Positions 3,515-61,194 of a stretch of 64,000 nucleotides of DNA are shown in pieces. Each line of letters starts with the position of its first letter. Position 1 is the first letter of the stretch. The stretch is from the IMG/VR virus record IMGVR_UViG_3300034684_000231; one strand, written 5' to 3'. Position numbers and translations under genes: made by a program. This DNA comes from an uncultured virus (IMG/VR IMGVR_UViG_3300034684_000231). Taxonomy: Duplodnaviria > Heunggongvirae > Uroviricota > Caudoviricetes. Below the pieces are notes generated by a model. That model saw only the letters and a list, made by a program, of their open reading frames with translations. It ran no database searches and was not told the DNA's origin.

Positions 3515-5839
3515 TTATGCAAAGATAAAATCTATAGATTGATTAGTGCTATTATAAATAATATTGAAATTATTAAGTGTAAGACTGCCATTTATAGTCA
3601 CATCATTAGCTGTAATCATATTGTTGACTGTAATGCTTTTTGTAAATGTAATATTGCCATTAACAGTGTTGTCTATGTCACTTCTAACAAATTGTGTTGA
3701 ATCTAAATTGTCTAATTTATCAGAATTGCCTGCGCTAGAGGCATAACTAACCGAAGCGTTTGCAATATCTGTAATTGTGGATATTGTATGTGTGTGAGAA
3801 TCGTTCTAAACAGTTGTGCTGATTGTAATATCAGATGAACCATCAAAACTTGCTGAACCGCTTACGCTACCAGATAAAGCAATTGTTCTCTAAGTTTCAA
3901 GTTTACTCTATGTATATGCATTTCCATTTAAAGCACCGTTAAATATATTCTATGTTACAGCGCCATCAATTAGTGCGTTGCCGGCAACGTGTAATTTTTC
4001 AGAAGGCAAAGTAGTGCCAATGCCTACATTACCGTCGTTTCCTATTACATATAGCTAATTTTTGCCTATATTAGTTGCACCACCTCTGTATTGTATGAAT
4101 AACGTGTTTGCAGTTCCATCAGAATTGTACAAGTTGATTTCGTTATTATATTCAAATCTTGTATATTGTGAGGTTCCACCGTTCCATATTTGGACCGTTC
4201 CATTTACAACTAAATCGTTTGAGATACCAGCAGAACCATTTACATCAAGTTTGTATAATGGCATTGTTGTGCCAATGCCAATATTTCCATTGTCGTCTAT
4301 GAATAACAATGATATAGATTTGTTATGTTTTGTAATGCGAAAGTAATTAGCTGAATTATTATTAGAATCTATATCTAAAGTTATTGAACCTTGTGAGCTA
4401 ATTGTAAAATCAACATTAGCATTAGATTCAATATTTGAAGAAGAACCATTGAATGAAACTAAACCTGTAAATGATGTTCCTGATCTAAGGGCAAAATCAC
4501 TCGAATCATATCCATCTAGCTTATCTGAATTATTTGAAAATAAAACAAAAGCATTAGAAATGTCTGTAATTTCAGAAATAGTATGTGTATGACCATTAAG
4601 AGAAAACTATGTTGCCGGAAGTCCATTTAATGTCTGAGCATCAAAACGAAGCTATGTGATAAGAAAATTCCTCTATGAGTATATTGGGGTATTGTTGTAC
4701 ATACTAATAATAGTGTCGTTGCCAAGCAAAGAACCGTTGAAAGAAAGAACTGAAACAAAACCGTTTAATAATTTATCTATTGCTCCGTTGTTATATCCAT
4801 GCCCGACATATACTTTTTGGAATGTGGTGCTGTTGTAATCTAACGTAGTCTAAATTTGTGTGTCTAACACCTATGTATCGTTGATAAATAATTTGGCATT
4901 TATGTTGTTGGCATCTATTCTGCTGTATCCTAACTAGAAGAAAGTCCAACCGTCTGGATCATATGATAAAGTCTGTGCAGTGTGAACAACAGTATTTAAA
5001 TTATCACGTATGGTGACTTTCAATCCAGTGTAGTTATTTATAGTCTCTAATGTAATACTGTTCTATTCACTCGGTTTACCAATTGATATTACTACCTAAT
5101 CATTTTGCCTTTTTGTAGGTGGAACATAGAAATATCCGTAAACAGTTAATGATTCGTGGTATCCTATTGTCGAGATAATCTTCCCATCTGGTCTGGTGCT
5201 TGCAGTGAAAGATGTCCATGTGCTACCTTCTTCTAATTGTAAATACTGAAGGTATAACTGCTACTTTTTTGTTGCGTCAACTGTAAATGCGATTTCAAAT
5301 TCCACTTTCTAAGCATTGGATGGAGTAGTAAATGAAGCATAATATAATTTGCCATCTTCAAGTTTAGCTTGGAGAGCTTCAGTTATACTTAATGCTGTCC
5401 AATTTACAAGTGTTGTATCCTATGCATCCAATATTTTATACTTAATGGTTATTGAACCATATTGAGTAATATCTGCAACAAAGGATAGCGTGTATGTTGT
5501 GTTTTCCTATATATTTACTGCGTTGGTAGTAACAACCGCAGATGTGTTTGAAGTACCAGAAAGTTTGTTTTCAATGTAAATGTTAAAACCTGGTTTGAAT
5601 CCCTTTGTAATCCAATACTGCGATTTGTATATGTCTATTGAATTGTTGAAAGAAACTGAAGGCAAGAACAGATCTGGAATATTATCTCCATTGTCATCGC
5701 GGGACAAAAGAGCGAGAGAACCAAACAAGTTTGTTGTTCCTTTTTCAATTAGTTGTGAATATTTCTAACCTACAAATGGTAGTGGAGATGTGTACTGAGT
5801 ATATATTTGATCTGCATTAACTATTAAAGTTGGTATCAA
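3515..5839 (-). CDS. Tail fibre protein, ~774 aa
   Basis: Probable TTG start after GGGGTG. Fragments 5507-5728 and 4055-4309 are in frame, with TAA at 3515-3517. Fibre motifs: two GN(I/V)GIGTT repeats, NGNAYT*SKLET*RTIALSGSVSGSASFDGS, two HTHTIS.ITDI...NSDKLD repeats, and LQLEEG. Confidence 0.8.
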
Positions 5840-5890
5840 TATGATCACACCCCTTGTTGATAAGATATGCAGTTTCTATTAAATAATTAA

Positions 5891-5910
5891 CAGCGGGCAT
5901 ACGCCCGCCG
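5891..5910 (-). terminator. GC-rich hairpin after the rSAM gene cluster (probable intrinsic terminator)
   Basis: Minus strand CGGCGGGC-GTAT-GCCCGCTG followed by TTAATTATTT, immediately after the TAA at 5912-5914. Confidence 0.55.
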
Positions 5911-5911
5911 T

Positions 5912-6175
5912 TTACTTAGTTTGCCTAATTCTAATTGTTGTACCACTTGAATTTGAAATTAATTCTAGTTCTACATTCTAGTCTGAGGTTATTGTTAAAT
6001 CTCCCAAAATAAATTCAAATTGCGGATTTTTCGGCAGTGGTTTATATACAAAGTAATTTTGAAGAGTTAAAGTATATTCCTAGTTTTCTTTCCTGTCCAT
6101 AAAGGTTACGTTAGAAACTTTGTCTGTAAGGTCTTCTCCGTTTAATACAAACTTAGTTACGTTTGGAAACGACAT
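5912..6175 (-). CDS. Hypothetical protein, 87 aa
   Basis: SD GGAGG, ATG at 6175 (MSFPNVTKFVLNGEDLTDKV...), two in-frame TAG, TAA at 5912-5914. Confidence 0.7.
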
Positions 6176-6189
6176 GTTAATCTACCTCC

Positions 6190-7818
6190 TTATTTATTTT
6201 CTTTAGGAACTATTAATGTGAGCTATTGTGGCGGTAAAGTTCCTTTCTTTTGATACGGTTGTTGATGCTAATTGTTTCTGTGTTTAATATATGCTTGATG
6301 ATTCATTGCCACTTCTTGGTACATGTCTAATAAGATGTGTATTCCCTAATCTAACAGTTGTCTTTTTAAATCGTCTTTATCTTTTGCCGGAATATCTTTC
6401 ATCACTTCGTCAACACCTTTGAAATAGTAACTCCCTTGATTACACATGCATTTTTCAAACATATTTCCATTCATTCCTTGATAGTATTTTTTAATTGGTC
6501 TTCTATCGTTAGAATAGATAATATTGTGTCTGTTGTAATCGAATAGGCCATATTGTTTGAATAAGTCTATAATTCTTCGAGCTGCACTATATAATGTATG
6601 ATTCATTTTACAACTTTTTTCGTTTTTTGCATCTATTTTTCCTGCGTTGTCATAGTTAGAAGCATAACAGGAACCTTTGCAGTAGTATTTTAATTTGCAG
6701 TATTTACAATGTTCTAAATTGTTGACGTCCCAATCTCTTAATTTAGAAAGCAATTCTTCGTTGTGTATGCCTTCCCATACATTGCCTAACCATCCGTAGC
6801 GTTTTTCAAAATGAATTTTATATGGATCTAAACCGTGTTTATTAAATCTATGGCATACAAATATTTGTCCTTCTACGCTTACACCAAAATACGTGGAGCC
6901 GGCACCACATGGCTTTGGCAAATGCATACCTCTGGACAAAGTATGAAGTTTAGGATCATAACTTCCTGTTTTTTCAATTTCATCTAAATTGATTCCTTGT
7001 CTTTCTGCTTCTAAGATGTAATAGATCATATCATCTACAAATTTGTTTTGTATTGCAGGAAAACCGTTTTTGTAGTTAATTATCATTCTCTCATACAATG
7101 CTACTAATTGTTCTTCAAGTTCTTTGAAATGATCATTAGTCCAATTTGCCTCAAATACTGGTGAGAAGAAATATGACACAATTCCTTTTCCAAGTACATA
7201 TTCATAGCTTTTGATAATGTTTGGTATATAGTCTGGATGTAAAGACATTCTCAATTGCGGAGCATAACCATATACCTTCTTGTAAAGATCTATGTTTTTG
7301 TCGATAATGTCGAAGCTCCCTTTTCCATTTGGCAGAACTCTTTGTGCATCGTGATTTTCTTTTATGCCGTCCATAGATATAAGCCACGTGATATTGCGTT
7401 CTGCACACCAGCGAAGCCTTTCTTCTGTAAATTCTACAGCATTGGTAGTGCCGCCTATATGTCTAATTTTTTTGCCAGTTTCTTTTGATTTTTGCTCGAA
7501 GTATTCATATGTTTTTTTGATCATGTCAAAGTTATGAAATGGTTCGCCGCCCCATGGTTCAAATCCCAAACCGCCTTGCTTATTTACTTCTTCTACCGTT
7601 CCTGAGTTGCCGTCATCGAAAAGCCAATCAACAGCCTACATCATTACTTCTTCAGTAAGCTTTCTGTCCTCTCGTTTTTTGGCCTAAAAGTCAGCGAAGC
7701 AATACTTACATCTTAGACTGCACCCTTCTGTCATATCTAGACTGAGATTTAACGTTGATGCTCCTAATTCTTTAAGTTTCTTCCCCGGTTTGCCTAATAT
7801 AAATGGATATTCTAACAT
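6190..7818 (-). CDS. Radical SAM enzyme with C-terminal SPASM domain (anSME/ranthipeptide-maturase-like), ~542 aa
   Basis: SD GGAGG, ATG at 7818. The CSLRCKYC (CxxxCxxC) motif lies upstream of two TAGs, followed by WGGEP, TTN and ISMDG. SPASM motif CGAG...VCHRF...CKYCKLKYYCKGSC...C. Ends at TAA 6190-6192 after three further TAGs. Confidence 0.92.
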
Positions 7819-7842
7819 TTCAAAGCACCTCCTGTATTTTGG

Positions 7843-9717
7843 TTATTGTTGTATATCTGTAGTTGAATAACATTCGCAAGAATAATTAAGTGTTCCATTG
7901 CAAGTACATGAACTTGTTGTTGCAACTCCGTTTGTTGTTGCGCTAGAATAAGAAGCACAATTAGAGTAAAGACTACACCTATTAGTTACTTCTGTTACAT
8001 CCTCATTGCATGAACTTGGTGGTGTACCTGCTATATCGTAATCACAGCTTGTTGCAAACGTTGAACATGTTGTAAACTAAGAACATGTTTGTCGTATTGG
8101 ATCAAACGTGTATGTATCACACTAACTATCACACGGACAACTATAGTTAAATGAGGAACATGTATAGTTTTGAGAATAACATTGCCAGCATTCGAACGCA
8201 TACCACGATTCACATCCGCAGTTATACCCATGACAAGTGTAATCACACTAACAACTAGAAAAGTTTACACAAGATGAATTGCAAGGACAAGTATGAGAAA
8301 AACAAAAACCGTTGCATTTACATGTGACTGCATTACATTGTCCATTACACATACATAATGCATCTGTTGTTCCATCACACTCGCAGGTTTCGTGATAACA
8401 TGATGTTTCGCAGTTGCAACTATATCCATCGCATGCGTTGTAACACGAACAAGGCCCATAACCGTCACAGGACAAATTGCAGTCACAATTGTATGATTGA
8501 AGGTAGCAACTTCTATCACAAGTACACGAGGAATATACATCGCAAACTGTATAACAGTCACACGAATATCTATCACATGATCCGTCGCATTGGCATGTAT
8601 AAAAACCTGTTCCATCACACTAACAGAGATCAAAAGAACAATATGGTGTGTCTACATCACATGCACACGTACTATAAGACATACAACCAGAAACAGTGTC
8701 ACATGTATAATTGCATTTACACGACGCTTCTTTGTAGCACTAATAGTTGCATCTGCATGATACTGTGTCACAGGCAAAATCACAAACACACTATATATAA
8801 CTATCGCAAGTATGATCACAAGAACACGATTTAACCACCACACATTGATTGTTACATTCACAAACTATATATTGTGTTCCATCGCATCCGCAAAGTTGTG
8901 CAAATAGCTACGAATAACATTCACACGTAAGATAATTTTTGGAATTGCATTGGCATGATTGGCTATTACAAACATTATAACAAGAACAGTTAGAATATCC
9001 ATTGCATGTATTATTACACGAACACCCAATTTCGCTATCACAACTGCCATTGCAAGTGCATGGAGAATAATAATCACAACTGTAACAATATGCTATTGGA
9101 ATATATGATTGTATTCTGTTGTAGTATTCGTTTAACACCTCGTCGCTTATGATTACTTCTGAGTAATAATGACAAGTATAGGTAGTATTATATAATGTGT
9201 CAATTACACTTTTAATTTGATCTATTTTAGATTTCTATATTGTATCTTTTGTCAAAACTTTGGAAGGAAGCGACGGCAAATTGCCAATACCATCTTTAGT
9301 GCTTTTATAAGCACTGTATAGCTATTGCAATTTATCAATGATCTTATTGACGGAATCTTTTCTAACGACATTCTATTGAACACCTGCTTTTACAATTACT
9401 CTTTTAAGAGTCTAGCCATCTCCAGTTGAAGACCAAATCTGAACTTTATTAGTACCGTTAAGTATTTTTGGTATTCTAGCAGAAAAAGTCATTGTTTTAG
9501 TATCGTCGAATTTTAGAACACGTAGTTCTTGATCGTTGACTGCTACTCTTACTCCTCCTTCGGCGTCAACGACAGTAACATATACAACACCAGAAGAATA
9601 CTCCCGGTTTGTATTAAATGTATATACAAGAGCATTGGCAATTGTAGTATTGTTTGGAATGCCAATAGAAATTGAACCAGAATCGTATAGTGTTACTTGA
9701 TCTGTATTTAGCTACAT
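7843..9717 (-). CDS. Cysteine-rich repeat protein (about 88 Cys in CxCxxxC repeats) with ~210-aa N-terminal domain, 624 aa
   Basis: Hand-translated end to end. Starts ATG-TAG-CTA at 9717 after SD GGGGTG. Fragments 8908-9138 and 8248-8475 are in frame, ending TAA at 7843-7845. Confidence 0.85.
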
Positions 9718-9730
9718 TCATTTTCACCCC

Positions 9731-12700
9731 TTAATAGAGGAATATTAATCTGCGACCATCTTCAAGAATTTTAACTACTCTACCTATAATGTATTTGCCA
9801 ACTATTTTGTCTAGCCATGTAGCTACTTTAAGCTTACCATCTAGAGTTAAACATAACTCATCGTCAATATTCTATTTTAAATTAACTTCTACTGTTCCTG
9901 CCAACGCTACAGGCACAGAATTTTTTCTTCCTTTACCCATAACAAAACCTGGTTTGGTAGATACAATCCATGTTTTTTTCCATGGATTATACTATTGCAC
10001 TACTTTTCCTTTTTTTATTTGAACTGGTGTGCCCGGCTCAAATTTTTCATTACTCCAGATATATTCCTATAAGTCTGCAAAATATGCCTATGTAGCTACA
10101 CCATTGAAAGTTCTCTAATGAATGATGCCATATACATTGTTGCTAGAACTGTCGGGATTAAAATTAGTAAGAGTATCTCCCTATGCATCTGGATCTATTG
10201 TGATCATTGCTAGCTAATGTCCCATATCTTTTGTTGTAAAAGTGTAATGCATACCAGCATCTACCTGTGAACTCTATGGTTTATCTGCTATATAAGCTCT
10301 AGCTTTTATTTGTGTGATATCAGAACGCTATTGTAATGTTTTGCTTGTTGTTACGCCAGTTAATGAAACTGTAACTGTTCTATTCTAAGGATCAAATGAT
10401 ATTGTGACAGTGTTATTAGATTGTGTATACGACGTGTTATACAAGACATCGTCAGAAAAATCAAATATCAATGTCTGGTATGCATATTCTCCTTCTGATT
10501 TGCCTTTAAAGTAATCGGCTGGGAAGTATTTAAATACTTGAACTTCTATCTTGTAAAATACTGTGCCTGTCGCACTAGTTAAGCTTGTTCCAGAAGGATT
10601 TGTGATTGTAGTCCAATCTGTTACCTATCCTTCTGTTTTACTTCCTGTTTTTGGCGAGTAAACTCCCGCTGGTTTAATCTATGCGTTTTGCAAACTAACT
10701 ATATAATGTTGGTTTGAACCATATGTTCTTAGAAGTTCAAGACCTGTCTCTTCATATCTATATACTTGCGGAATATCCTATGCATATACTACGGAATTCG
10801 GATAAGTATTATCCTTTTTAATTTCTACATTATATAGGTAAGTATCTCCAATAAACTGTCCGAATAAGTCTCCAACCTAATGTGTTTTCGAACCATCGAA
10901 TTCAAGATATTTCTAATCTGCTCGATTCCCAACAACAAATTTATACTGAGAGCCGTCTTTACCTATCCAAAATCCAGCACCAGCATCGTCAAAATTCTAA
11001 TGCCCGCTGCTGTGCATATTACCTGTTATTTCTATGCTTTGAGAAAACAAGTTGTTTACATCTATTTTGCTCTAGGTGATAGTATTGTTTACTATCAAAT
11101 CTCCACTAATAGAGCCACCTTGTGCATATATATTTCCATATATATTAAGATTCTAACCATCCCACAAGATATATTGATTTGTGTTCCCAACTTTAAATTT
11201 TGGAGTAGTAGAATCTAGATACCAATAATTATTACTGTTTACTACAATTCCAGGTTTATTAGTTCCGGCCTAATTTTTGCCTATCATAATATTGCCTGCT
11301 TGCAAGTTTGCGTTTACAGCCAAGTCTCCATCTATTGTTCCGCCTTGTGCATATATATTCCCTTTCACAGCAAGACTGTTTTGTCCGTCCCATACTACAT
11401 ATGTATTGCTGTTTCCTACTTTAAATTCACCTGTGGTAAACCAATAATTATTTTCATCTAAGTATAATCCATCTTTGCCAGTTGTCACATTCTTTCCTAA
11501 AGCAAAAGCGATTTGATTTGAGTCGTTTTTGATGTATAGTTTGTTAGATATAGTTACATTTCCGCTATTATCCCATACTAATGTGTTTGCTAAATTACCG
11601 CTACCGTTTGTTTGCCATGTTATATTTCCACTTGCTAGTTGGCCAGAACCGTCTGTGTTAAGAACAATAGCTCCACTACCAAGATTAATAGTGCCATCGG
11701 TTAATTCAAATCCGCTGTTGTTTATTAATACACCGGTACTTTTTAGCTCAAATGTATTGGTGGTATCTACATCGAATTTGATATAAGACGTAGGATCACC
11801 GACAAAAAAATGCACGTTTTTATTTGAATCTGTGGTGACTTTAAAGAACTCTGTATCATCTTTTAACTATATAATTGCAGTGTCATAGCTATTGGTTTTA
11901 CCTTGTATATTATCAAGAGTTGAACCGTCACCGATATATACTCCGCTAAGAGTTCCATCTAAATCATTTTTTTGCCCGATAAATAATTTTCCTGTTGCAA
12001 TGTTCGCGTTGTCAATAGTTGTATTATTTTTCCAATCAGATAACCAACCATATAATTTGTTTTCTATAGTAACAGTTATAACCTTTTCTAATTCGATTGG
12101 TTCGGCCTAAGGTGTATAAGACGCTTTGACTAACAGGGCACACACAAATGACTGTGTTGTAATTTCAGATGGATCAATTAAAATGTTTAACGGTATTGAA
12201 ATCTTTGAGTTATTCAGAACAACATCATAGTATGTACTCGAATTTCTAATAACAGAAATTTCTATATTACTTGTAATTGAATTTTTTCCAAGCAAAACAT
12301 TTGGATAGAATTCAAGATTGATATCTGATAAGTCCGTAGTAGCATCAATACTATATTTGTAATGGTATTTTTCCGAGTTAACATCGGTCGGATCTGTTAA
12401 AAGCTTTAAAACGTATGTATCTGTTTTATCGATTATTGTAATTTGGTTGCTATAAACGTCCCCACCATATGTAGCTTCACACGTATAAGTTGCATACACA
12501 TCAACATTGCTGGTATCTATAGCCAGAGTATCTGATGTGACACCATCAATAGGATTTCCGTCTTTATACCACTTGTAGGTTACACCGTCTGCCTATGTTT
12601 TTACTTCAGAATTAACATATAGCGTCTATTTTAATGTGGTGCTTTGTAATTCATAAGTTAATTCGTTTCCGTTTGATGACGAGATAGCCAAAAATGTAGT

Positions 12701-14659
12701 ACCCGCGAGTTGAAGCTTACTGAGAGTGATGTTTGCAGTAAGCTCATTGTCTCCTCCTTGTAAATATAATACACGAAGAACCTAAGTCACACTTGGCATC
12801 TGGTTGTATGTAACATTGATAGAAGTAACTCCTTGCTAAATTTCTGTGCCATTTAAATACCAGAATATATTTTCTGTATCTATGATAGGTTGTTCTGTAT
12901 TGTTTTTAATGAACTTAACTGTAAAAGTTTTTGTTTCGTTCACATCCTATGTGGTATACACCACACCATTTGGCTAATCTATTGTTATGTATTGCGGTTG
13001 GTTTTCGGGCTCGGATATGATTGAAATTGGGACCGTTTTGCTAACTGTAATTTCTCCGTTTGTGTAAGTACATCTTACCTATAAGACATCGTTATAACCA
13101 TAATCAACAGTAACTGTTGCGGATAAGTCCTAATTTGTTGTTAAGTATGCACGAGGTATATTTGAAGTACTATTGATTAGCATTCCGTTGATTGTCTGGT
13201 TTGGTATGAGTTCCCATTGAATATTTTGCTGTTCTAAGTTTACAACGTTTCCCATTGAATCTTGTACAACAGGAATAAAGTTTAGTTGCTAACCAGCAGG
13301 GACCTATGTGCCATCAGAATAAAAGTATATAGAAGTGCCTTGTGGTGTTTCTATATCTAGCACATAACCATCATTAAGGTTATTTAATGTTACTTGCTAA
13401 ACGTGTGTTACATCAACAGCTTGTGCTTCTAAGATCTATGCTCCTTGGCTTGCTAAATCACTACGGTAAACAACAGCATAATATTTACCATCAATGTCTG
13501 TTGGTGTAATAGTTGTTGGAATATCATTTACTTTTAGTGTCCAAGTGACGTCGTTTGTTACATCTGTCACAATGCCCGGCTTTGTTAAATCAACCTTTTT
13601 CTATTTGAACTTAAGCTAAGTTTTTTTGCTTGAAAAGACTGTGCCATCAATTTGTTCAATTACTAATTGCTTTGTATAATTGTATGTTTTCTTTACATTT
13701 ACAATGTTTGAAACGAATTTGTTGTTAACAACACATCTTACCAACACATTATTTGATTGCGAAAAGATAGGTGCATTCACACCTATTGTTAATGTATCTG
13801 TTGTAGCACCTGTAACGTCATCTTTTGTGTCTGTTGGAGTATTATTATTTGTGTCTGTTATCGGTTGCCAACCATTGTTGTAGTATTCCCATTTGTATGA
13901 TGTGGATGTAATATTGTTCAGCTGCTATTTTAATTGAATTGTATCTGTGTTTACTTGCCCGTCTGTGAAAATGAATTCAGCCGGGCCATTAAAAGCATCT
14001 ATAAAGACAAATTGTGCTTTGCTGACGTCTGGAACTTCATATACTGGTATATTTACAGAATATGTTTGGCCCTAAACAATTGCATTTACTTTTATTGTAC
14101 CACTTGTAATAGTTGAAGGATCTATGGTTAATGTTGAACCTGTATATAAAGGGGTTACATCGTCGCCGTCATACCATTCAATTGTTGCTTGCTATGTAAC
14201 GTCTTGTCCTTTATAAATCAAAAACTAATTAATGGACTAAGTACCAGAAGAGCCCGCTGTATATACAATAGAACTTTTGTCAACAATTAGTGTTGGTTGT
14301 CCAGTAGAGTCAATTTTCTTGATAGTAACACCAGCGATTCCTATCTTAGTAGTTGCACCAACATTGTGTTCCCCTTTTACTACAAGATTTGTAGGCTACT
14401 GAGTCTAAGAAATAGAAATAGTTTTGTTCACATTGTCGATGGTACCAGAACCAGATACAATTGAAAAAATGGTGCTTGCAGTAACGTCTTCTCCGTTCAG
14501 ATATGCTTTTAAATCTGCAGTTATGCTACTTGGCGTATCCGTATTTAAAATCTAGTCGTGAAAAAATCCATCTTCTCCGTTTCTAAAATTTATTGTGATT
14601 TGCAAGTCTTTGAGTTTGTCAGTTAAGTCGTATACTACTATAGAATTTTTAGCGGGCAT
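9731..14659 (-). CDS. Large tail fibre/spike protein with repeated Ig-like segments and a C-terminal ADLAE-type chaperone-like domain, ~1642 aa
   Basis: SD GAGGTG, ATG at 14659. Fragments 12107-12499 and 11270-11815 are in frame. C-terminus FNGVAT*AYFADL*EYIWSNEKFEPGTPV...IVSTKPGFVMG...VPVALAGTVEV, TAA at 9731-9733. Confidence 0.75.
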
Positions 14660-14683
14660 TAATCTCACCTCACATTAGCATTA

Positions 14684-24616: not shown

Positions 24617-25807
24617 TTATATTGTGGTATACGTGACATTTAAGTTGTTCAATACTGGATATTGATCTTCTTTTATATCTATAGTAGATAATACGTTTCC
24701 AATCTAGTCTTTAACTTGCAATGAAGTAATTAATGCGGAAGGCCATACTGATGCAAACGCGCGTTTGATTTCTGATGTAATGTCAGCAACATCGAGGCTT
24801 TGCTCCGTTCCTATTTCAAGAGAATTGAGATAGTTAATAATTGTTGTTCTTAACGATTGTGTTATCGAATCTTCGCTGTCCTGTTCTGATGCATAGATTT
24901 CAATATTTACATCAATGTTTAGAACTATTTGCTCCGCATTCTTGAATAATATATCTACACCTAAAGGTAACTGTTGGCTTAAATTTTGTGCAACTTGTTC
25001 GGCTAATTGAATGTTTGTAATTAACATTTGATCTTCATTGTATATAGCAGAAATCTTTGGAAAGATAATAACATCGGCAGTCTATAAACCGCGGGCAAAA
25101 TTTTTTACTTTAACAAATCTGATATCATAAGTTGAGGAATAGACTGCGCTTTCAAGCCACGAGGTTGTTGGCCCGAACCTATTTTGTAATGCGGTTGCTA
25201 TTCTAAGCTTTAAGGCTTCGTCACTTTCATAGTTTACAAGCACATCTATTGTTTTTGTAGACTTTGCACTTAAATAATCATTTAAAATATCTGTGTCATA
25301 TGTAAACGTTAATTTTGTATCTTTTGGAACTAACACATTTGACACAGTGACTATTTCCTACGGAAGCACAATTGTTGACTATTCTAACGCTGTAAGGTTG
25401 CTATAATCAGGCAATGCCGCAAGTACAAGATCGTTGTATTGTACGTAAATTCTTGTTGGAAAATTGTCTTGGCTGCCATATACAGTTTGCAAAACAGTCA
25501 AAATACTTTGAGAAATATCATTAACAGATATGGAAATCTATGCAGGAATAACAAACCCTTCTTCAAATTGAGTGTTTGCAAGCCGTGCCATACCAACTAG
25601 TTCAGCTATTATGTCAAGTTCTTTATCATGCTATTCTAATAAGTCGTAATCTGGCTAATTTGTATATGTACCTTGTACAAGAAATTTTACTGTATCTATC
25701 TCGTTGCCAATCTATGTTAAGAGATGTCCTAATACAGAGTTAGGCATAATGCCCTAATATTTAGCATCAAGAGACTGTAGTCTGGATTTGAGAGCATTAA
25801 AACCCAT
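24617..25807 (-). CDS. Baseplate J-like wedge protein, 396 aa
   Basis: Motifs NSVLGHLLT*IGNEI...LE*HDKELDIIAELVGMARL, ESDEALKLRI, RGL*TADV, PLGV and IINYLNSLEIG. TAA at 24617-24619. Confidence 0.8.
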
Positions 25808-52574: not shown

Positions 52575-54041
52575 TTATGCCAATGCGTATTCAAATTTAA
52601 CGCTGATGTTAATTACCTCGATTTCTGCAAATGCTCTGATTTGTGCTTTAACGTTAAGAGCATTGATTGCACCGCTTGCTACATCTGGTTCAACTGTTAC
52701 TGTACCGCCTGCAATTTTGCCAGCTTGTTTCATGCTGTTTGTAAAGTTTTGCATTGTTGATTGCATGCTCATTCTTACTGTTCCGCTGTTTGGTTTTCCT
52801 AAGAATTTATCAGCAATTTCTTTCAAGCCATTGATGTATTCGTTAATGACTAAGATGCTGGAAATTTTTGTTAATGGTGTTGCTCCGGCAGAAGCTGTTC
52901 TTCCAACTATAATCATTGGTTTCTTTTGATATCCTGGTTTGTTGTAGAGAGCTGTAATTCTTGCGCCTGCTAATTTGTTTGCTTGTTCTAAGGTAATTGA
53001 TTCTAACAATGTTACTCCATCAAGCGCAAAATTGATTGGCCCTGTGTAAATATTGGATTTGTGAATATATGCCGCTACAAAGGATGCCAAGTCAACAACA
53101 TCTGAAGATACATTGTTTACAGTTCCGTGTCCTGCAACAACAACCAATCTGTGGCCAAGATCATTTCCTGTGTCATCAAGAATTCCGTTTTTAAAATCGC
53201 CATTTTTCATTAAGTTTTCGAGGTTGTCAACCCATGTTTTAATTCCACTGAAGGTATAGCTTGCTGGTTCTTTTGTGCCTATGAATGCTAATACATTCTT
53301 AAATTGGTTACTTTGTTTTTCTGCAAATTTTGCAAGAACATTTGCAAAGTGAGTTGAAGTTCCTGCGTCGTCAAGTACCGCATCAATAGCATAAACATAA
53401 TCTACTTCTAAACCGAGCAATTCATTAAGAGCAGTTTCAAGAGCAGCTATTTTTTCATCGTCTGTTGTTGGTTCAACTGCATATTGGAACACAAAGTATG
53501 CATCTGCTGTTGAAGGTGTTCCACTTATTGTTAATCCATATGCACTTAAATCTGATACTTCTACATCGTTAACATAAACTTTTCCATCTAATTGTGATAC
53601 TTTTATTACAAAATTTTCTTTCCATGTTGGCTCACCAGTCCAAGAAATGGTTACGCCGTCTAAGGTTACACTGCCATCTGCTGTAGCTGGAGCTAATGAG
53701 GTTTTTGCTGAATCTACATCTGTACCTGCACCTGCTTTTATATCTACCTTACCTACTCTTACTACTACAGGAATAACATCCCATTCTGTAGTTTCTCCAA
53801 CTATTTTTGCGTGAAGTCCTAATTTTTCTGTGGTACCAAACATATCAGAAAGCATTGTGCTATTTACAATGAAGTATGGTTCGTTAAATTTGATAGGTGT
53901 TCCGTCTGCAAACTAATCGTTTGGATACCAACCAAGTAACAAGAACTTTGGTTTAGAATCATCATATACTGGTGTTTGAGTTTCAACAGAAATGCTTGAT
54001 ACTACTCCTGGAAGATTTGGATAAATCCTTAATTCTGCCAT
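52575..54041 (-). CDS. Contractile tail sheath protein, 488 aa
   Basis: SD AAGGAGG, ATG at 54041 (MAELRIYPNLPGV), one TAG at codon 43. The C-terminal sheath domain reads FLGKPNSGTVR...IRAFAEIEVINISV. Confidence 0.85.
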
Positions 54042-54064
54042 GTTAAACTACCTCCTTTATAAAA

Positions 54065-54652
54065 TTAAGAGATCATTTCTACATAGGTATCAATCTTACG
54101 TATTACATCTATAGATTTTGTGATTGTTTGCTCAGTCTGTACCTAGTACAACAGTGTTGTTTTATATAACTTTGTTCCGCCAATATCTTCTATCTCATCT
54201 TCTTTTTGCTCCCAAAAGACAGGAATCTGATATCCGTTTTTTGTAAAAACATTCGATGTTATGTTTAGCATACTCATATAACTGATAAAATCTTCTGTTG
54301 CCCTGGACACTAATGAGTAATCCGTTGAATATAAATCGAACTCAATCATGTTATCTAAGAAATATTTAAACTGTTGTTCCTATGCTATACCACCTGCACC
54401 TATACTTAAATTAACAGGAATGGGACGCATGAAAGTGCGTTCTTGAAATGGCATTTTCTGACTGCCCTACTATCGCCTCTGTAATTTGTAAATTAACAGC
54501 ACGTTGTTTGCCTATGGATTTGCCTCTTTTAATAAAGCAGGAGGTTTTACTGTGACTTCATAACCTAATTGCTTGGCCTCAACATACTAAGTAAATGCTT
54601 TGGATATAAGCCCCACGACGTCAAGATAAGATTGCAATTCAGTCTTTAACAT
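54065..54652 (-). CDS. Tail completion/terminator-like protein, 195 aa
   Basis: SD GGAGG, ATG at 54652, fragment 54143-54349 in frame (DNMIEFDLYSTD), directly upstream of the sheath. Confidence 0.6.
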
Positions 54653-55022
54653 ATTTTCTTACCTCCTATGTGTTGCAGTATAAAAGGTATCCAAGGAGTT
54701 TGCCTTCTACTATAGTTTCTACAATAGTGCCTATTTCATATTCGTCTGTAAATTCAAGAGAACCATCATCTTTTTTGCGGACAAGCTACACGTGTCCTTC
54801 TTTTATAGGCTCAATTCCGTATTTTGACTAGACAAATATAAGAAGTTTTAAGTTTTCGGTTACGAATGGCTTTTCTATATCCTTTGGTTGAGCAACAGAT
54901 TGATAGTTACTTGTTAAGACAGCAGGCTATTTTAATACATACTATTTCCCATCTTTCTATTCAACAAGAATAGGACGCTATGCCATATCAAGCATGTAAT
55001 CTATGAGAACTTCGTAATCCAT
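54639..55022 (-). CDS. Head-closure/neck-like protein, 127 aa
   Basis: TAATG overlap start, hand-translated with 7 TAG, TGA at 54639-54641. Function inferred from position only. Confidence 0.5.
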
Positions 55023-56170
55023 TAGATTTCACCACCGTATCCGAAAATTTCTTCCCATGCTTTAATCTACTGCAATGCTTTTGTGTTTGCTGGATACATT
55101 GCTCCTTCGGATTTGCTCTATGATATTGGAGAAAGTCCACCAAGATATTCCCTTATCAATTCGTCTTTTTGCACTTTTAAGAAGTCAATTTGGGATTGAT
55201 TTACTCTACCAAATGTTACGCTTGCTACGCCTGTATTTACTTGGTTTCCTGAAGAAAGCATTTTGCGATTCAAAAGCAACGTGAGAAGTTCATAATACTA
55301 GTATTTTTCAAGGAACAAACGAGTTTTTGAATCAATTATAGTTTTGCCTATAATTGTTTCTCCTATAATTTTTTCATATACAACCATCTATGATAGAGAG
55401 GCATAATAGATGTCTGCATCTGTGATTTCGTTATAATACTTGCCTAACTGCGAGCCGACATGTCTTACGTTAATATAAGGCTTTAATGTAGTAAGAGCAA
55501 TGAATTCAAACGTGTCTTTTCGCCCATTTTCAAATTCAATTTCACTTGTAGTGATATAAACAATCTAATTATTTACATATGTAGGCATTATGTAGTGAAG
55601 TTCATTTTGTACAAAAAACGCGCTTTCGCTTGTGTCTGTTACGTCGTGTGTGTATGTGGAAGCTTCTCCGTCTATTCTGTCTATTGTGACGTAAATTTTA
55701 AATGGCTTAGCTATTGCGCTTGAAAATGTCTATACAAATTCTGCTGTGTTTAAAAGCTTAGTATAAGTAACAGTCACAGGACTGTCATCTAAAACTACAA
55801 TTGGCTGTGGTGTTGTATCGCTTTGTGTAGGTGTATCGTTTGTTCCGTTGGATACTTCGCCTGTCACTGTAAACTCTAATCCGAAAGTGGATGCTTGATT
55901 GCCCGTTGTGCTTAAAAGATATTTGTTATTGAGCAAATCATAACCAGAAAGATACAAATAATAAGTTCCCTAAGATGGATTCTTAGGTGTAATAGTCAAG
56001 TCATAACCGCTTATTGAGTAATCATATTCAACAGATGCACCGTTCTTTTCTAGAATGAGCATCTATGGTGTAAACGTATTTGCGTCTATTTTCTCGTCGA
56101 ACGTAAGAACTATACTTTCATTGATGCCTATATTCTAACCGTTAGCCGGATATGTTGACACGACTTTCAA
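55022..56170 (-). CDS. Neck/adaptor-region protein with N-terminal Big_5-type Ig-like domain, 382 aa
   Basis: SD AAGGAG, TTG at 56170. MKVVSTYPANG*NIGINESIVLTFDEKIDANT. Hand-translated to TAA at 55022-55024. Confidence 0.7.
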
Positions 56171-56204
56171 GGAGACTCACTCCTTTCGTTTTGCAATCTA
56201 TCAT

Positions 56205-56215
56205 TGAATTAACAA
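56205..56215 (-). promoter_or_regulatory. Candidate late promoter motif TTGTTAATTCA
   Basis: After the capsid terminator and 35 nt upstream of TTG 56170. Confidence 0.5.
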
Positions 56216-56234
56216 CTAAATATGTGCTAACAAC

Positions 56235-56262
56235 AAAAAGCCGTGGCTAAATGCCACGGCCT
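56235..56262 (-). terminator. Intrinsic terminator after the major capsid gene
   Basis: GCCGTGGC-ATTTA-GCCACGGC followed by TTTTT. Confidence 0.85.
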
Positions 56263-56280
56263 TATTTTAGTTTCTTATTA

Positions 56281-57486
56281 TTATACAGTGATTGTGCTTA
56301 CTGCGAGAGGATCAAATGTTTCGACAACTTTGACATCTTTTATGACTCCGATTGCAGATCCGTCGAATTTTGGAGCCATACCGTATCTTTCTCTAATCTT
56401 GAAGCGTTTAATGTCTCTTGCAGGATCATTGAACTCTTCTGTTGTTGGCCTTTCTGCTGTGATTAAGTATCCGAGATTTTCGCTGTCTACAACTATAATG
56501 TCTGTTAATTTGTTGTTTTTGTCGTATCTTGCTGCTGGTGAAAGTATTAATCTGAGTGGTTTTCCAATTATACCAGTTGGAAGTTCAAAGCTTACAATAT
56601 TTCTTCCGTTGAGATCTGCTGTTTTACCCATTACTTCGTAAATTGATGGCTGTCCGCCTTTTGTTGTTGGCCAATTGAATAGTGATCCTTTTTCTCCCAT
56701 TGATCTGAAGAAGAAGCTTCTTAATGTTCCGTTCTTTGCAAAGATTGGATATGCAAGTGGGTGCATGATTATGGTGTCAACATTGAATCCTTTGTCCATG
56801 AATTGAACTGCAACATCTATAATGTCATCTAATGAAAGTCCTTGGTTTGGATTTCCGCTGATGTCAACACCAGAACCGCCGTTCTTGAGTGTCTTTGCGC
56901 TTTCGTAGAACATTTTGACAGCTTTTCTTTCTTTCCATCTTGCCAATGCTTTTAATGCTTCTTTTATTGCTGCATTGAAGATGTCAAATCTTGAATATTT
57001 GATTGCTTCCTCTGTCAATGATACAGCTATACCTGATTTTCCAATTGTGACTGTTGCAACAGCTCCTCCAGCGACTTTCAATTTTATTTCTGGGTATTCG
57101 CCAGCTTCTCCTACATCTAGGCTTTGTCCAAATGCACCAACGAATTGTGGAACGTGAATTGTCAATGATGGTCCTGGATCTACTTCGATTTCTTCAAGTA
57201 ATGATGTGATAACAAGTTGGTTTTCAAATACATCTGTTGCCATCTTTGTAATAACTTTTGGGAAAAAGTAACCGAATTCTGGTGATGTGATTAAGTCTTC
57301 CATAGAATATTTTTTGGAAGCTATTTTGTTGATTTTTCCGTGATTTTCTATAAGTCTTTTGTAGAGTTCAACTTTCTAATCTTCCTCTGCAACCTTCTTT
57401 AACTATTTAACTACATCAGAGTCTCCAACTATGATTTCTTGTATCTTCTCTTCTACTATTTCGTTGATGTAATCTTTGAATTCCAT
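56281..57486 (-). CDS. Major capsid protein (HK97 fold), 401 aa
   Basis: SD GGAGGG, ATG at 57486 (MEFKDYINEI), TAG at codons 28 and 37, in frame with ORF 56281-57303. Motifs VGEAGEYPE, IGKSGIAVSLTEEAI, IIMHP and KIRERYG. Confidence 0.9.
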
Positions 57487-57525
57487 GTTATATTCCCTCC
57501 TCATCTATTTAATCAATGATTTTTA

Positions 57526-58344
57526 TCAGAACCAGAGTTGGATTAACAAGCCTTTCTTGGTTGTAAGATCAATACCATCTGTTACACCATCGGTTGGTTT
57601 TCCAGGTAATCCACTTGCAAAGTCGTCTGGTAAGTATTCAACTGTTTCAAGTGCTCCTGTGAAATCTGGTTCTTTTACAAGATCAATAACTTTGACAAGT
57701 CTTCCTACACCGTATTTTAAGTTCTCTAATGAAGCGGCTACTGTTGATGCATCTGTGTTGTCAACTGTAAATGGTACAGGGAATCCTTTGTCATCAAGTA
57801 TCAAAATATCTCCTGCTTCATAATTGACTGCATTGTGATCGTTATCAACTGCTAAGAGAATCATTCTGTCAGCTAAAATAGTTATAGGATCTTGCACTTG
57901 ATACCAAGGATCTTTGCCCATATCCCATGCGTATACATCAAACATTGCAACACCAAGTGGTTTCCCTATCTTTATGTCTGCTGTTGCTGTTGTTCCAAGT
58001 TTCTTTGTTGAATCTCCTGCTGCTGAAACTACTGGGTCATTAGCGTTGTTTGTAAATCTGTCAATGTGTTTTACTCCCGCATCAATGTCGTATTGTCCAT
58101 ATGTAAGAGTTTTTTCTCCTACGAATGCTGGTACTACATAACCATATTTGTCAAGAGTTACAAAGTCGCCCTTTTTGATAACAATTCCTGCGTTTACGTT
58201 CTTGTCAAATTCTTTAATTGGCAAGTATGGTGCTGGTCTTAATTCAAGTCCACCGCCGATTCTAATACCATCAGAATATTCTCTCATCTTTTCATGCTTT
58301 GCTTCTGGATAAAGTGGTATGCTGTTGTTTAAAATCCTTGCCAT
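57526..58344 (-). CDS. Capsid decoration/cement-like structural protein, 272 aa
   Basis: Intact ORF with no TAG, SD GGAGG, TGA stop. Lies between the scaffold and the MCP. Confidence 0.65.
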   Translation of the reverse strand: MARILNNSIPLYPEAKHEKMREYSDGIRIGGGLELRPAPYLPIKEFDKNVNAGIVIKKGDFVTLDKYGYVVPAFVGEKTLTYGQYDIDAGVKHIDRFTNNANDPVVSAAGDSTKKLGTTATADIKIGKPLGVAMFDVYAWDMGKDPWYQVQDPITILADRMILLAVDNDHNAVNYEAGDILILDDKGFPVPFTVDNTDASTVAASLENLKYGVGRLVKVIDLVKEPDFTGALETVEYLPDDFASGLPGKPTDGVTDGIDLTTKKGLLIQLWF

Positions 58345-59739: not shown

Positions 59740-61194
59740 TTAACTATTTTTAGTGTGTTGATTTTGAGGATTTACTTTATTTTCTGTTTCTGCTGAATTC
59801 TCCGGTTCGGTATTTATTAAACCTGGCTTTGCTTCCGCTTGCCATTCTACCTGTGGCTTTTTAACGTGGTAAATGTACATGTCTTCTTCATCCACTTCTG
59901 TGTGCATACCTAATTGTTCTCTCATTTCAGAGAATGTGATCGCACTATGTTCATACAAGTAAACAGCTTGGTTTTGTAGTTTAACTAATGTGTCTACATC
60001 AGGATCGTTAAATATAAGTTTCGGCATTTTATCGCCAAGAGTCTTAGGATTGTATCCCATATCAATAACTATATGTTCCAACACTTCATGTTGGAATTGC
60101 TATGCAAACAATTTTTGAAATTCTTTTGCTTTAAGGAGAGCAAAGTTAACGGAGGTTTCAGCAGTAGCACGGTTGGCCTAACCTGCTTCGCCCATCATAA
60201 CGGAAGAAAGACCAAGAGCACCGTAAACTCTGTGCCTAATCTTGTCGTAGAAAACTAGAATATCTTGGAGAACATTGTTAGCGCGCGTTTCTATATCATG
60301 GTTGTGAGGAGCAACTATTGTGTCATATGGCTCCATGCCTTCTAACATTTTCTTTGTTTGAATCAATTCATCTTTGGAACGTGCCGGCATTTTATCGTTT
60401 CCAACTTTATAAATAGAATACATTACTTTACCTTTCTCAATAATGTGTTCAATTATACGTTCAATCTTTCTGAGAATTAACAAATCATCTATTGCTTCAA
60501 AATAGAATGGTCTTCCAAAACCTGTAAGTATATCTTCGTCGTATTTAAAGTGCGCAACTTCATATCTATAAAACTTGCGTGAAGTGGTTGTTCCGAAAAT
60601 ATCGCCGATAAAAAAATTGAGTTCGGGATCATGCGCAAAAAAGCTGTATTGTCTTTGTAATAGCGATAAATCTTGTTTGTAAGCAACAGTTTCTCCAAAT
60701 GTATTCCTTTGAATAGCCATTATTATTGGATGTGTTACAAAGATACCAGAAATTGGATCTAAGTTCTTGCCGTTGTATACGTATGATTTTCCAGAAACAG
60801 CATTTTTGCTTCGAGAGAAAACTAACATTGCATTACCAAATGCAATAAAATGTTTCATAGCATTGCGTACAATTTCGTACATAGTAAGATTGGAGTTGAA
60901 TTCTATTTCACTTAGCCTTTTCTTTAACTTCTTATTAATTTCTGTATCTGAAGACATAATGTAAAAGCCGTTGTTAATACAAAGCTCTGTATACATCTAA
61001 ACGGTTTGCTTCAGAATACTATCAGCTCGATAAATTCTGTAAGCATCAATAAGACCAGTATTTGCTTCATATTGTCCTTCGGGTGTTTTTGTTCCCTACT
61101 ATACCTGTTTCTTTTCTTTTATTAGATTTGATTTGCTCGCTGCATCCTACATAATTGGCTCTTCTTTCTTCTTAAACCAGTCAAAGAAGCCCAT
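59740..61194 (-). CDS. Portal protein, 484 aa
   Basis: SD GGAGG, MGFFDWFKKK. Fragments 60178-60996 and 59740-60084 are in frame. Motifs FGNAMLV, VAHFKY...GFGRP, ANRATAE and AITFSEMREQLG. Confidence 0.85.

Follow-up and report, generated by a model that had tools for sequence, protein, structure and literature searches.

The locus described here raises the question of why a gene for a radical SAM (rSAM)/SPASM enzyme stands directly behind a gene for a very large cysteine-repeat protein in the tail-fibre cluster of a phage. It occupies positions 5912-9717 of a 64,000-nucleotide stretch of DNA (the window) from an uncultured member of the Caudoviricetes, IMG/VR record IMGVR_UViG_3300034684_000231. 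A preliminary description had proposed that the enzyme cross-links the repeat protein. The best reading of the two genes is an enzyme-substrate pair, and this is well supported by synteny. That the enzyme is a maturase of the kind known from ribosomally made peptides with post-translational modifications (RiPPs), stapling a fibre-type protein, is the most likely reading of the whole, and one towards which we lean slightly.

Under genetic code table 11 the region appears as fragmented open reading frames (ORFs). With TAG read as sense, long minus-strand ORFs extend across the whole window, and three of them open in the locus at exactly the coordinates given in the preliminary description: the Cys-repeat gene, the rSAM gene and a gene for an 87-aa protein, with 12, 5 and 2 in-frame TAG codons, respectively. 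Recoding of TGA as tryptophan (table 4) was rejected, as it leaves the three ORFs closed. The spacer between the Cys-repeat gene and the rSAM gene measures 24 nt and contains AGGAGG, so that the close spacing described earlier stands and the figure of 25 nt does not; the 87-aa gene follows after a further spacer of 14 nt.

About 20 close homologues of the enzyme were found in the protein database, and a metagenome scan with the enzyme delivered 43 loci, about 15 of which are distinct at <90% identity. Upstream sequence of at least 150 nt is available in 35 of these, and in all 35 the ORF immediately upstream of the enzyme gene encodes a Cys-repeat protein; the other eight loci have less than 150 nt there and stand outside the count. 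The repeat proteins at these loci range from short forms of 228-271 aa with 28-40 Cys (L011-L016) to a partial ORF with 132 Cys, and some loci carry two consecutive repeat genes. The reverse search, with a degenerate DNA pattern of two consecutive units in 18 of the 64 parts of IMG/VR, yielded 121 loci, mostly simple TGY-type repeats. Seven of these, of differing repeat quality, have a related rSAM gene nearby. The repeat ORFs of L103, L098 and L116 are Cys-rich (>8% Cys), L112 and L082 contain a shorter repeat stretch (4-8% Cys), and L113 and L110 are represented by tail-fibre proteins with just 10-11 Cys. A hidden Markov model (HMM) of the enzyme family matches inside the locus in six of the seven, and for L112 there is a PapB-like gene (261.8 bits) about 5 kb off in the same record; the remaining loci of the repeat-pattern scan gave no match to this HMM. 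The co-occurrence of enzyme and repeat, named in the preliminary description as a check, is therefore found both via the enzyme (35/35) and via the repeat (seven IMG/VR loci). As a separate observation, L098, L110, L082 and the record of L112 (G001) hold paired rSAM/SPASM-like genes, one with a strong and one with a weak HMM score.

Both partners are rare. The repeat protein has 34 matches in 1.84 billion representative sequences, about ten of them via the repeat, and a search of 185,579 species genomes found the rSAM family a single time, on a 3.6-kb contig of a metagenome-assembled genome. IMG/VR scans with both proteins and with the enzyme alignment returned no relatives, and a tblastn search of GenBank phages returned just distant rSAM proteins (24-28% identity) and the N-terminal domain of the repeat protein. 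A full-text literature search found no paper describing a module of repeat protein and rSAM enzyme.

The 624-aa protein contains 89 Cys, of which one falls in residues 1-210 and 88 in the last 414, as in the earlier count of about 88 Cys in about 415 aa behind an N-terminus of about 210 aa. Cys-Cys spacings are mostly 2, 4 and 5-6 residues. The protein has 18 copies of the motif C.C[NDYH]..C, compared with 0.9 +/- 0.9 (maximum 6) when its sequence is shuffled 2000 times at constant composition. Across the family the gap between successive CxC starts is 11 residues (214 cases) or 12 residues (185 cases), which confirms the units of about 11-12 residues described before. The consensus of 279 distinct family units is C-[ST]-C-[N 51%, D 26%, Y 14%]-x-[TS]-C-[Y 44%, D 19%, N 19%, H 14%]-[GS]-[YD]-[ST]-x, with Tyr common at positions 8 and 10. 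A comparison of 39 close pairs shows differences in 0.7-1.2% of aligned cells for Cys 1 and 3 of the unit, in 8% for the Cys at position 7 and in 16-32% for the other positions; positions 4 and 8 differ in 16-24%, almost solely within N/D/Y/H. A DGR-type origin for this N/D/Y/H variation was considered and set aside. No DNA-level tandem repeat was found in the repeat region, so the periodicity is kept at the protein level and recent DNA-level duplication was rejected as its source. The conserved motif 'CxxCYxxxYxCxxFxxxCxCDxxCxxY' starts at about aa 510 and extends into the C-terminal tail.

Look-alikes of the N-terminal beta-sandwich, at Z 7-8, are carbohydrate-binding modules, TNF-like lectins and tip domains of phage fibres, a weak likeness that may reflect just a common arrangement; the sandwich domain recurs in proteins of up to 4552 aa. 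A helical lead-in similar to the linker that follows it apparently also precedes the repeats in short relatives, as judged by eye. AlphaFold2 (AF2) gave no confident model for residues 207-624, so that the fold searches cover residues 2-115 only, and weakly; a look-alike search of the ESM Atlas with the repeat part of the relative P0092 gave no usable match. A full-length homologue exists (P0079, 606 aa, 50% identity). Profile searches with the 624-aa protein found no match to a ranthipeptide or sactipeptide precursor family, and in place of a short precursor (<~100 aa, leader plus core) the gene encodes 624 aa with a folded N-terminal domain. The putative substrate is thus a large, multidomain protein, as had been proposed, and not a short peptide.

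The 542-aa enzyme matches PF04055 with 43.5 bits (cut-off 29.5) and the SPASM model TIGR04085 with 44.9 bits (cut-off 27). C33, C37 and C40 of its radical SAM motif are invariant in 20 enzyme sequences; of the SPASM cysteines C304, C322, C371, C384 and C403 are invariant, and C374 and C380 nearly so. With the CxxxCxxC motif and the full set of seven SPASM cysteines the gene is complete, as first described. The best family model is PapB (NF047865, equivalog) with 194.8 bits (cut-off 340), followed by the nif11-type family (147.8 bits; cut-off 518.7), the SCIFF maturase (TIGR03974; 140.1 bits; cut-off 425), QhpD (TIGR03906; 126.1 bits; cut-off 453) and CcpM (121.9 bits; cut-off 500). Each of these best full-length matches is a family that makes Cys thioethers or has Cys-rich targets. 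Since all five family scores are below the cut-offs, the enzyme neighbours these families and is a member of none of them. The AF2 model of the enzyme has a predicted local distance difference test (pLDDT) value of 79.8, and its nearest solved folds are CteB (5wgg, E 8e-19), then anSME, ChlB, TigE and SuiB. The thioether-forming SPASM clade named in the preliminary description is accordingly recovered in the profiles and in the fold, as a neighbourhood only.

The SCIFF and QhpD profile matches begin at profile positions 95-98, which correspond to enzyme residue 24, so that the N-terminal leader-recognition domain is missing; in the AF2 model the first strand (E24-28) sits right before the CxxxCxxC motif (aa 33-40), and a winged helix ahead of the barrel was not seen. 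A leader-recognition domain (RiPP recognition element, RRE) may be located elsewhere, for example in the C-terminal extension. This extension contains a substrate-like unit, C457-x-C459-N-x-x-x-Y464, and the unit C-x-C-[NDY]-x-x-x-Y recurs in the phage enzymes of L103 and L165, distant as these are; our guess is a pseudo-substrate or docking strand. The class of the enzyme, the missing leader-recognition domain, the invariant cysteines and the strict synteny together lead to the reading as an enzyme-substrate pair.

The pairing might be real and the chemistry a different one, for example Cys-to-formylglycine oxidation as in anSME, epimerization, or aromatic C-C (cyclophane) links through the conserved Tyr of Y-G-Y. 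The presence of anSME among the best structural matches, the scores of the cyclophane-forming YhhB and GrrM families and of the sulfatase maturase family, and the frequent Tyr at unit positions 8 and 10 would agree with this. Those families, however, reach 36-50 bits against 126-195 bits for PapB, SCIFF and QhpD, and the invariant feature of the repeat is Cys and not Tyr; we regard chemistry other than Cys thioether formation as unlikely.

For the stapling of a fibre-type protein we propose the following course, in which we infer the thioether chemistry and the link sites. The locus would be a late operon of three genes, set among the tail-fibre genes of an uncultured myovirus. Its first gene would encode a lectin-like beta-sandwich, a helical linker and about 30 units C-x-C-(N/D/Y)-x-x-C-(Y/D/N/H)-G-Y-x-x, and its second gene a dedicated radical SAM/SPASM maturase with three predicted [4Fe-4S] sites. 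The maturase would work processively along the unfolded repeat region, abstracting in each unit a hydrogen from an acceptor residue, which would then form a thioether with the sulfur of a neighbouring Cys. The best acceptor candidate is the N/D/Y/H residue at position 4, three before the third Cys, a spacing N-x-x-C as in NxxcA. Since [N/D]-x-x-C occurs 22 times in the 624-aa protein against 12.8 expected, a first guess is one thioether per unit, from position 4 to Cys 7. In N, D, Y and H alike a beta-methylene stands beside an sp2 carbon and could stabilize a beta-radical. The outcome would be a multiply stapled, stiff rod, insensitive to reductants and doing the job of disulfides; in an anoxic habitat it might form the shaft of a fibre, or its adhesin. 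As AF2 gives no repeat fold, the rod is a conjecture.

Several findings weigh against this proposal. The enzyme lies under the curated cut-off of every named thioether family. The CX3[DN] spacing, of which CX3D is the freyrasin motif, is not enriched in the 624-aa protein (9 versus 12.8 expected). At the candidate acceptor positions N, D, Y and H replace one another, even when near-identical strains are compared, which calls for a very tolerant enzyme; these residues could instead be surface or ladder residues and not cross-link sites. The Cys-to-Asp/Asn-type sites of the preliminary description were, as a strict rule, drawn too narrowly. AF2 finds no confident fold for residues 207-624 and reaches a pLDDT of about 30 in the repeats. 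Between the substrate gene and the enzyme gene L103 has two unrelated ORFs, and the L112 record a distance of 5 kb. The virion location of the Cys-repeat protein is deduced from gene neighbourhood and shared domains only, and the 1645-aa ORF on the upstream side has no family match in the PHROG search and thus no fibre annotation. Finally, CxC-rich sequences also bind metals.

The last point leads to a further explanation, in which the repeats are a metal-thiolate array (Zn, Cu or Fe-S) with unmodified thiols and the rSAM enzyme has another target or only requires the protein as a partner. Metal-binding proteins typically contain CxC motifs, each unit offers three Cys, and a region that folds only around cofactors would agree with the failure of AF2 to fold it in their absence. 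Set against this, one rSAM/SPASM lineage is linked to the repeat in all 35 testable loci and independent lineages are linked to it as well, neither a metallochaperone nor another candidate substrate is conserved alongside, and the repeat region has much Tyr, unlike typical metallothioneins. An array of free thiols seems rather improbable to us.

Evidence on where the repeat protein might act comes from relatives and from strain variation. Standard-code relatives fuse a 'CSCNxxCYGYxA' repeat to other modules: P0091 has an F5/8-type-C domain and matches a 'host range and adsorption' PHROG, P0092 and L112 have weak, sub-threshold C1q-like matches, and P0085 a weak, sub-threshold collagen-trimerization match. 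The Cys-poor fibre proteins of L113 and L110, encoded beside related rSAM genes, end in Peptidase_S74, the endosialidase chaperone domain, which is typical of tail fibres. Other studies have near-identical (~99%) copies of the operon in contigs of their sequencing runs; the labels of these runs are shale gas, crude oil, oil production facility and wastewater. None of the runs listed with the region is an RNA run. The habitat labels fit an anoxic habitat; shale gas, crude oil and oil production are in line with the anaerobic host assumed at the outset. Positions 5912-9717 were compared with runs X5, X7, X8 and X9, and the 40 best-supported of 140 differences were evaluated, a small sample from non-independent contigs. 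These comprise 27 nonsynonymous and 4 synonymous changes in the Cys-repeat gene, 3 and 5 in the rSAM gene and 1 and 0 in the 87-aa gene, and no Cys or TAG codon is altered among them. A fixed Cys scaffold with apparently fast-changing surface residues is what one expects of a receptor-binding part.

A product outside the virion, secreted or intracellular, would also have to be considered, such as a precursor with multiple cores that is cleaved into many small modified peptides, or a factor directed at the host. Short relatives of 136 aa (L098) and 228-271 aa (L011-L016) exist, and peptides are the normal targets of RiPP maturases. The operon has, on the other hand, no conserved protease or exporter, the gene sits among fibre genes, its N-terminal and fused domains are of adhesin or fibre type, and the replacement pattern between strains resembles that of receptor-binding proteins, all of which makes such a product quite improbable.

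The reading of TAG as sense is supported by the window as a whole, where 32 long ORFs contain 431 in-frame TAG codons (2.25% of codons) and end in TAA (21) or TGA (11), never in TAG. That the genes, broken as they are under table 11, are read-through artefacts in a decayed gene cluster has next to no probability, given these counts, the full-length homologues, the suppressor tRNA(CUA) of relatives and the near-identical copies in several studies, with no indels among the best 40 of 140 differences.

TAG here most likely encodes alanine and not glutamine, as judged by alignment columns and tRNA features. The preliminary description was right that the genes are invisible under the standard code; the usual Gln for TAG most likely does not hold. 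In the enzyme family, columns with a sense consensus of at least 70% show Ala in 7 of 11 cases where TAG occurs and in 7 of 12 where TAA occurs, and in a BLOSUM sum over stop-bearing columns A and S are at the top and Q is poor. Relatives without in-frame stops have 13-17 alanine codons (GCN) per enzyme core, TAG-reading relatives 2-4 with 9-15 sense TAG, and a TAA-reading clade none with 22-29 sense TAA/TAG; the sum of GCN and TAG (and TAA) per core is 11-17 for the TAG-reading groups and 22-29 for the TAA clade. A stretch of the repeats that reads 'GYSACSC' in GCN users is 'GYS-TAG-CSC' or 'GYV-TAA-CSC' in recoded relatives. The window's own code was checked on a 2118-aa protein with 74 TAG against four relatives: the relatives' printed 'Q' (TAG) stands in 17.9% of the cells of its GCN-Ala columns, versus 9-10% for T, S, K and E columns, and in its TAG columns A is the commonest non-Q residue in three of the four relatives.

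A suppressor tRNA with anticodon CUA is located about 1 kb downstream of the rSAM gene in two relatives (L002, 3920-3994; L004, 3433-3507) and has A73, G2-C71, G3.U70 and G4-C69. These are the bacterial alanine identity set, which has no anticodon element (Table 1 of PMC9976931). A tRNA search of the 64-kb window found none. Genetic code 15 (TAG = Gln) is not what the Ala-tracking columns and the alanine-type tRNA indicate. The preprint of Borges et al. reports for phages only TAG-to-Gln and TGA-to-Trp, and the word 'alanine' is absent from its text; a full-text literature search found no natural TAG-to-Ala phage code. Gene callers that write Q at TAG would introduce a wrong residue at about 2% of positions in these phages. 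As side observations, TAG is scarce in the probable high-expression genes at 52575-58344 on the minus strand (sheath 1 in 488 codons, head protein 3 in 411, a 272-aa ORF 0) and makes up about 2-3.5% of codons in fibre and giant genes. A HEARO RNA (RF02033) lies near the suppressor tRNA in L002 (5124-5348, 161 bits) and L004 (3705-3934, 147 bits), which suggests an IscB/HNH-type mobile element in these phages.

The TAA-reading sister clade comprises metagenome loci L018-L036, L038 and L040, which use TAA plus few TAG as sense. The evidence for sense TAA comes from two genes, rSAM and repeat gene; ORF density is no guide here, since spurious frames occur everywhere once TGA is taken as the sole stop. 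The observed/expected ratio of GpC is 1.28 in the window, 0.89 in relatives without in-frame stops, 0.66 in TAG-heavy relatives and 0.08 in the TAA clade, where TGT is counted 938 times versus 14 for TGC and AGT 375 times versus 15 for AGC. By its codon usage this clade looks like a GpC-free genome that writes Ala as TAA/TAG and has TGA as sole stop. With its ratio of 1.28, the phage of the window would keep TAG = Ala without avoidance of GpC, whereas the sister clade is almost free of it.

The coordinates of the features are summarized in Table 1. Behind the 87-aa gene a hairpin follows at 5912-5889, the terminator of the preliminary description. Placement between two fibre genes, as described there, holds for the downstream side, where the 777-aa ORF matches tail-fibre PHROGs; the upstream ORF matches no family. 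Homologues of the 87-aa gene stand behind the rSAM gene in nine loci of the nearest subclade only (L001, L002, L004-L010); profile searches with the 87-aa protein gave no family at the significance level used. The PHROG matches for portal, major head protein, sheath and baseplate wedge represent the structural module of a myovirus. Since sheath and baseplate genes are present, the phage is a myovirus, and identity as a crAss-like phage was rejected. Also observed were three consecutive giant ORFs of 2449, 2194 and 2118 aa with 66, 51 and 74 TAG, respectively (26839-47176, minus strand), almost without family matches; the 2449-aa ORF has an endolysin-like stretch at aa 2211-2302.

Table 1. Position of the three-gene locus, its protein regions and other annotated features in the 64-kb window
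Feature	Coordinates	Strand	Basis or remarks
Tail-fibre protein, 777 aa, downstream	3515..5848	-	phrog_972, 7389, 21722 and other tail-fibre families
Terminator-like hairpin	5889..5912	-	10 bp, 7 G-C; directly after 87-aa gene
87-aa gene (P0003/P0070)	5912..6175	-	ORF; 14 nt past rSAM gene
Radical SAM/SPASM enzyme, 542 aa (P0002/P0069)	6190..7818	-	Profile matches, AF2 model
Substrate-like unit C457-x-C459-N-x-x-x-Y464 in C-terminal extension of enzyme	6427..6450	-	Sequence
SPASM region of enzyme, aa 304-403	6610..6909	-	C304, C322, C371, C374, C380, C384, C403
Radical SAM cluster motif CxxxCxxC of enzyme, aa 33-40	7699..7722	-	CSLRCKYC; C33, C37, C40
Cys-repeat protein, 624 aa (P0001 with TAG=Q, P0068 with TAG=A)	7843..9717	-	ORF with TAG as sense
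C-terminal Cys-containing tail, aa 534-624	7846..8118	-	Conserved motif runs in from upstream
Cys-repeat region, aa 211-533	8119..9087	-	Units C-[ST]-C-[NDY]-x-[TS]-C-[YDNH]-[GS]-[YD]-[ST]-x, period 11-12
Helical linker, aa 117-215	9073..9369	-	AF2; helices 117-138, 162-176, 192-215
N-terminal beta-sandwich, aa 5-113	9379..9705	-	AF2 pLDDT 71-84; phrog_23593 'tail protein', E 4.7e-9
1645-aa ORF, upstream	9731..14668	-	No family match
Baseplate wedge	24617-25807		PHROG match
Sheath	52575-54041		PHROG match
Major head protein	56281-57516		PHROG match
Portal	59740-61194		PHROG match

The known products of radical SAM/SPASM thioether enzymes are small modified peptides and one enzyme subunit. In the system described here such machinery is hard-wired to a large repeat protein of phage-fibre type in several divergent phage lineages. 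Taken further, the observations would describe a widespread, unnoticed group of phages from anoxic habitats, whose receptor-binding fibre has a shaft of Cys-stapled repeat with tens of rSAM-made thioethers per chain, and which write Ala as TAG or, in the GpC-free sister clade, as TAA/TAG; this wider picture is tentative, and we doubt it somewhat more than we believe it. If true, RiPP chemistry would here make a structural material, and the fibre would be the first of a virion to be cross-linked by an enzyme. If the staples are real, they would represent a new stabilization of extracellular virus parts where disulfides fail to form. The enzyme would then be a natural, processive, leader-independent maturase with about 30 sites per chain, useful for peptide and protein engineering, and the repeat a new scaffold in which the Cys are invariant and the surface positions freely variable.

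Among known systems, PapB is the nearest family, also by the scores of the distant enzymes (L103, 197.8 bits; L112 record, 261.8 bits). Like the phage enzyme it is an rSAM enzyme with a full SPASM domain, and its product freyrasin likewise has many repeated Cys sites, with six Cys-Asp links and thus Asp as acceptor (review PMC8326336). It differs in that the phage enzyme stays under the 340-bit cut-off, in that freyrasin is a short peptide with six links and the phage substrate a 624-aa multidomain protein with about 30 units, and in that the phage system is encoded among fibre genes and its repeat is not enriched in CX3[DN]. NxxcB links Cys23 to the beta-carbon of Asn20 in NxxcA (review PMC8326336), the same spacing as [N/D]-x-x-C in the phage unit. 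NxxcA, however, is a small peptide with one link, whereas the candidate acceptor of the phage varies among N, D, Y and H, and an NxxcB model is absent among the profile matches listed for the phage enzyme.

QhpD forms Cys-Asp/Glu thioethers within a protein (review PMC8326336); it resembles the proposed phage system in acting inside a protein subunit and not on a leader-bearing peptide. The number of links is three in a small enzyme subunit, against dozens of phage units, and the phage enzyme is below the QhpD cut-off and has no dehydrogenase context. CteB (5wgg, 5why) is the closest solved fold, with a template modelling (TM) score of 0.68-0.71 on the target. In contrast to CteB, the phage enzyme enters the family profile about 75-95 residues further on, lacks the N-terminal recognition domain, and has a C-terminal extension of about 120 aa with the CxCNxxxY unit. 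As for the genetic code, the code 15 phages (crAss-like, Lak, Garnet and Topaz among others) share with these phages the use of TAG as sense in late and structural genes and a phage-encoded suppressor tRNA(CUA); they differ in that here TAG follows Ala columns and the tRNA carries the alanine identity set.

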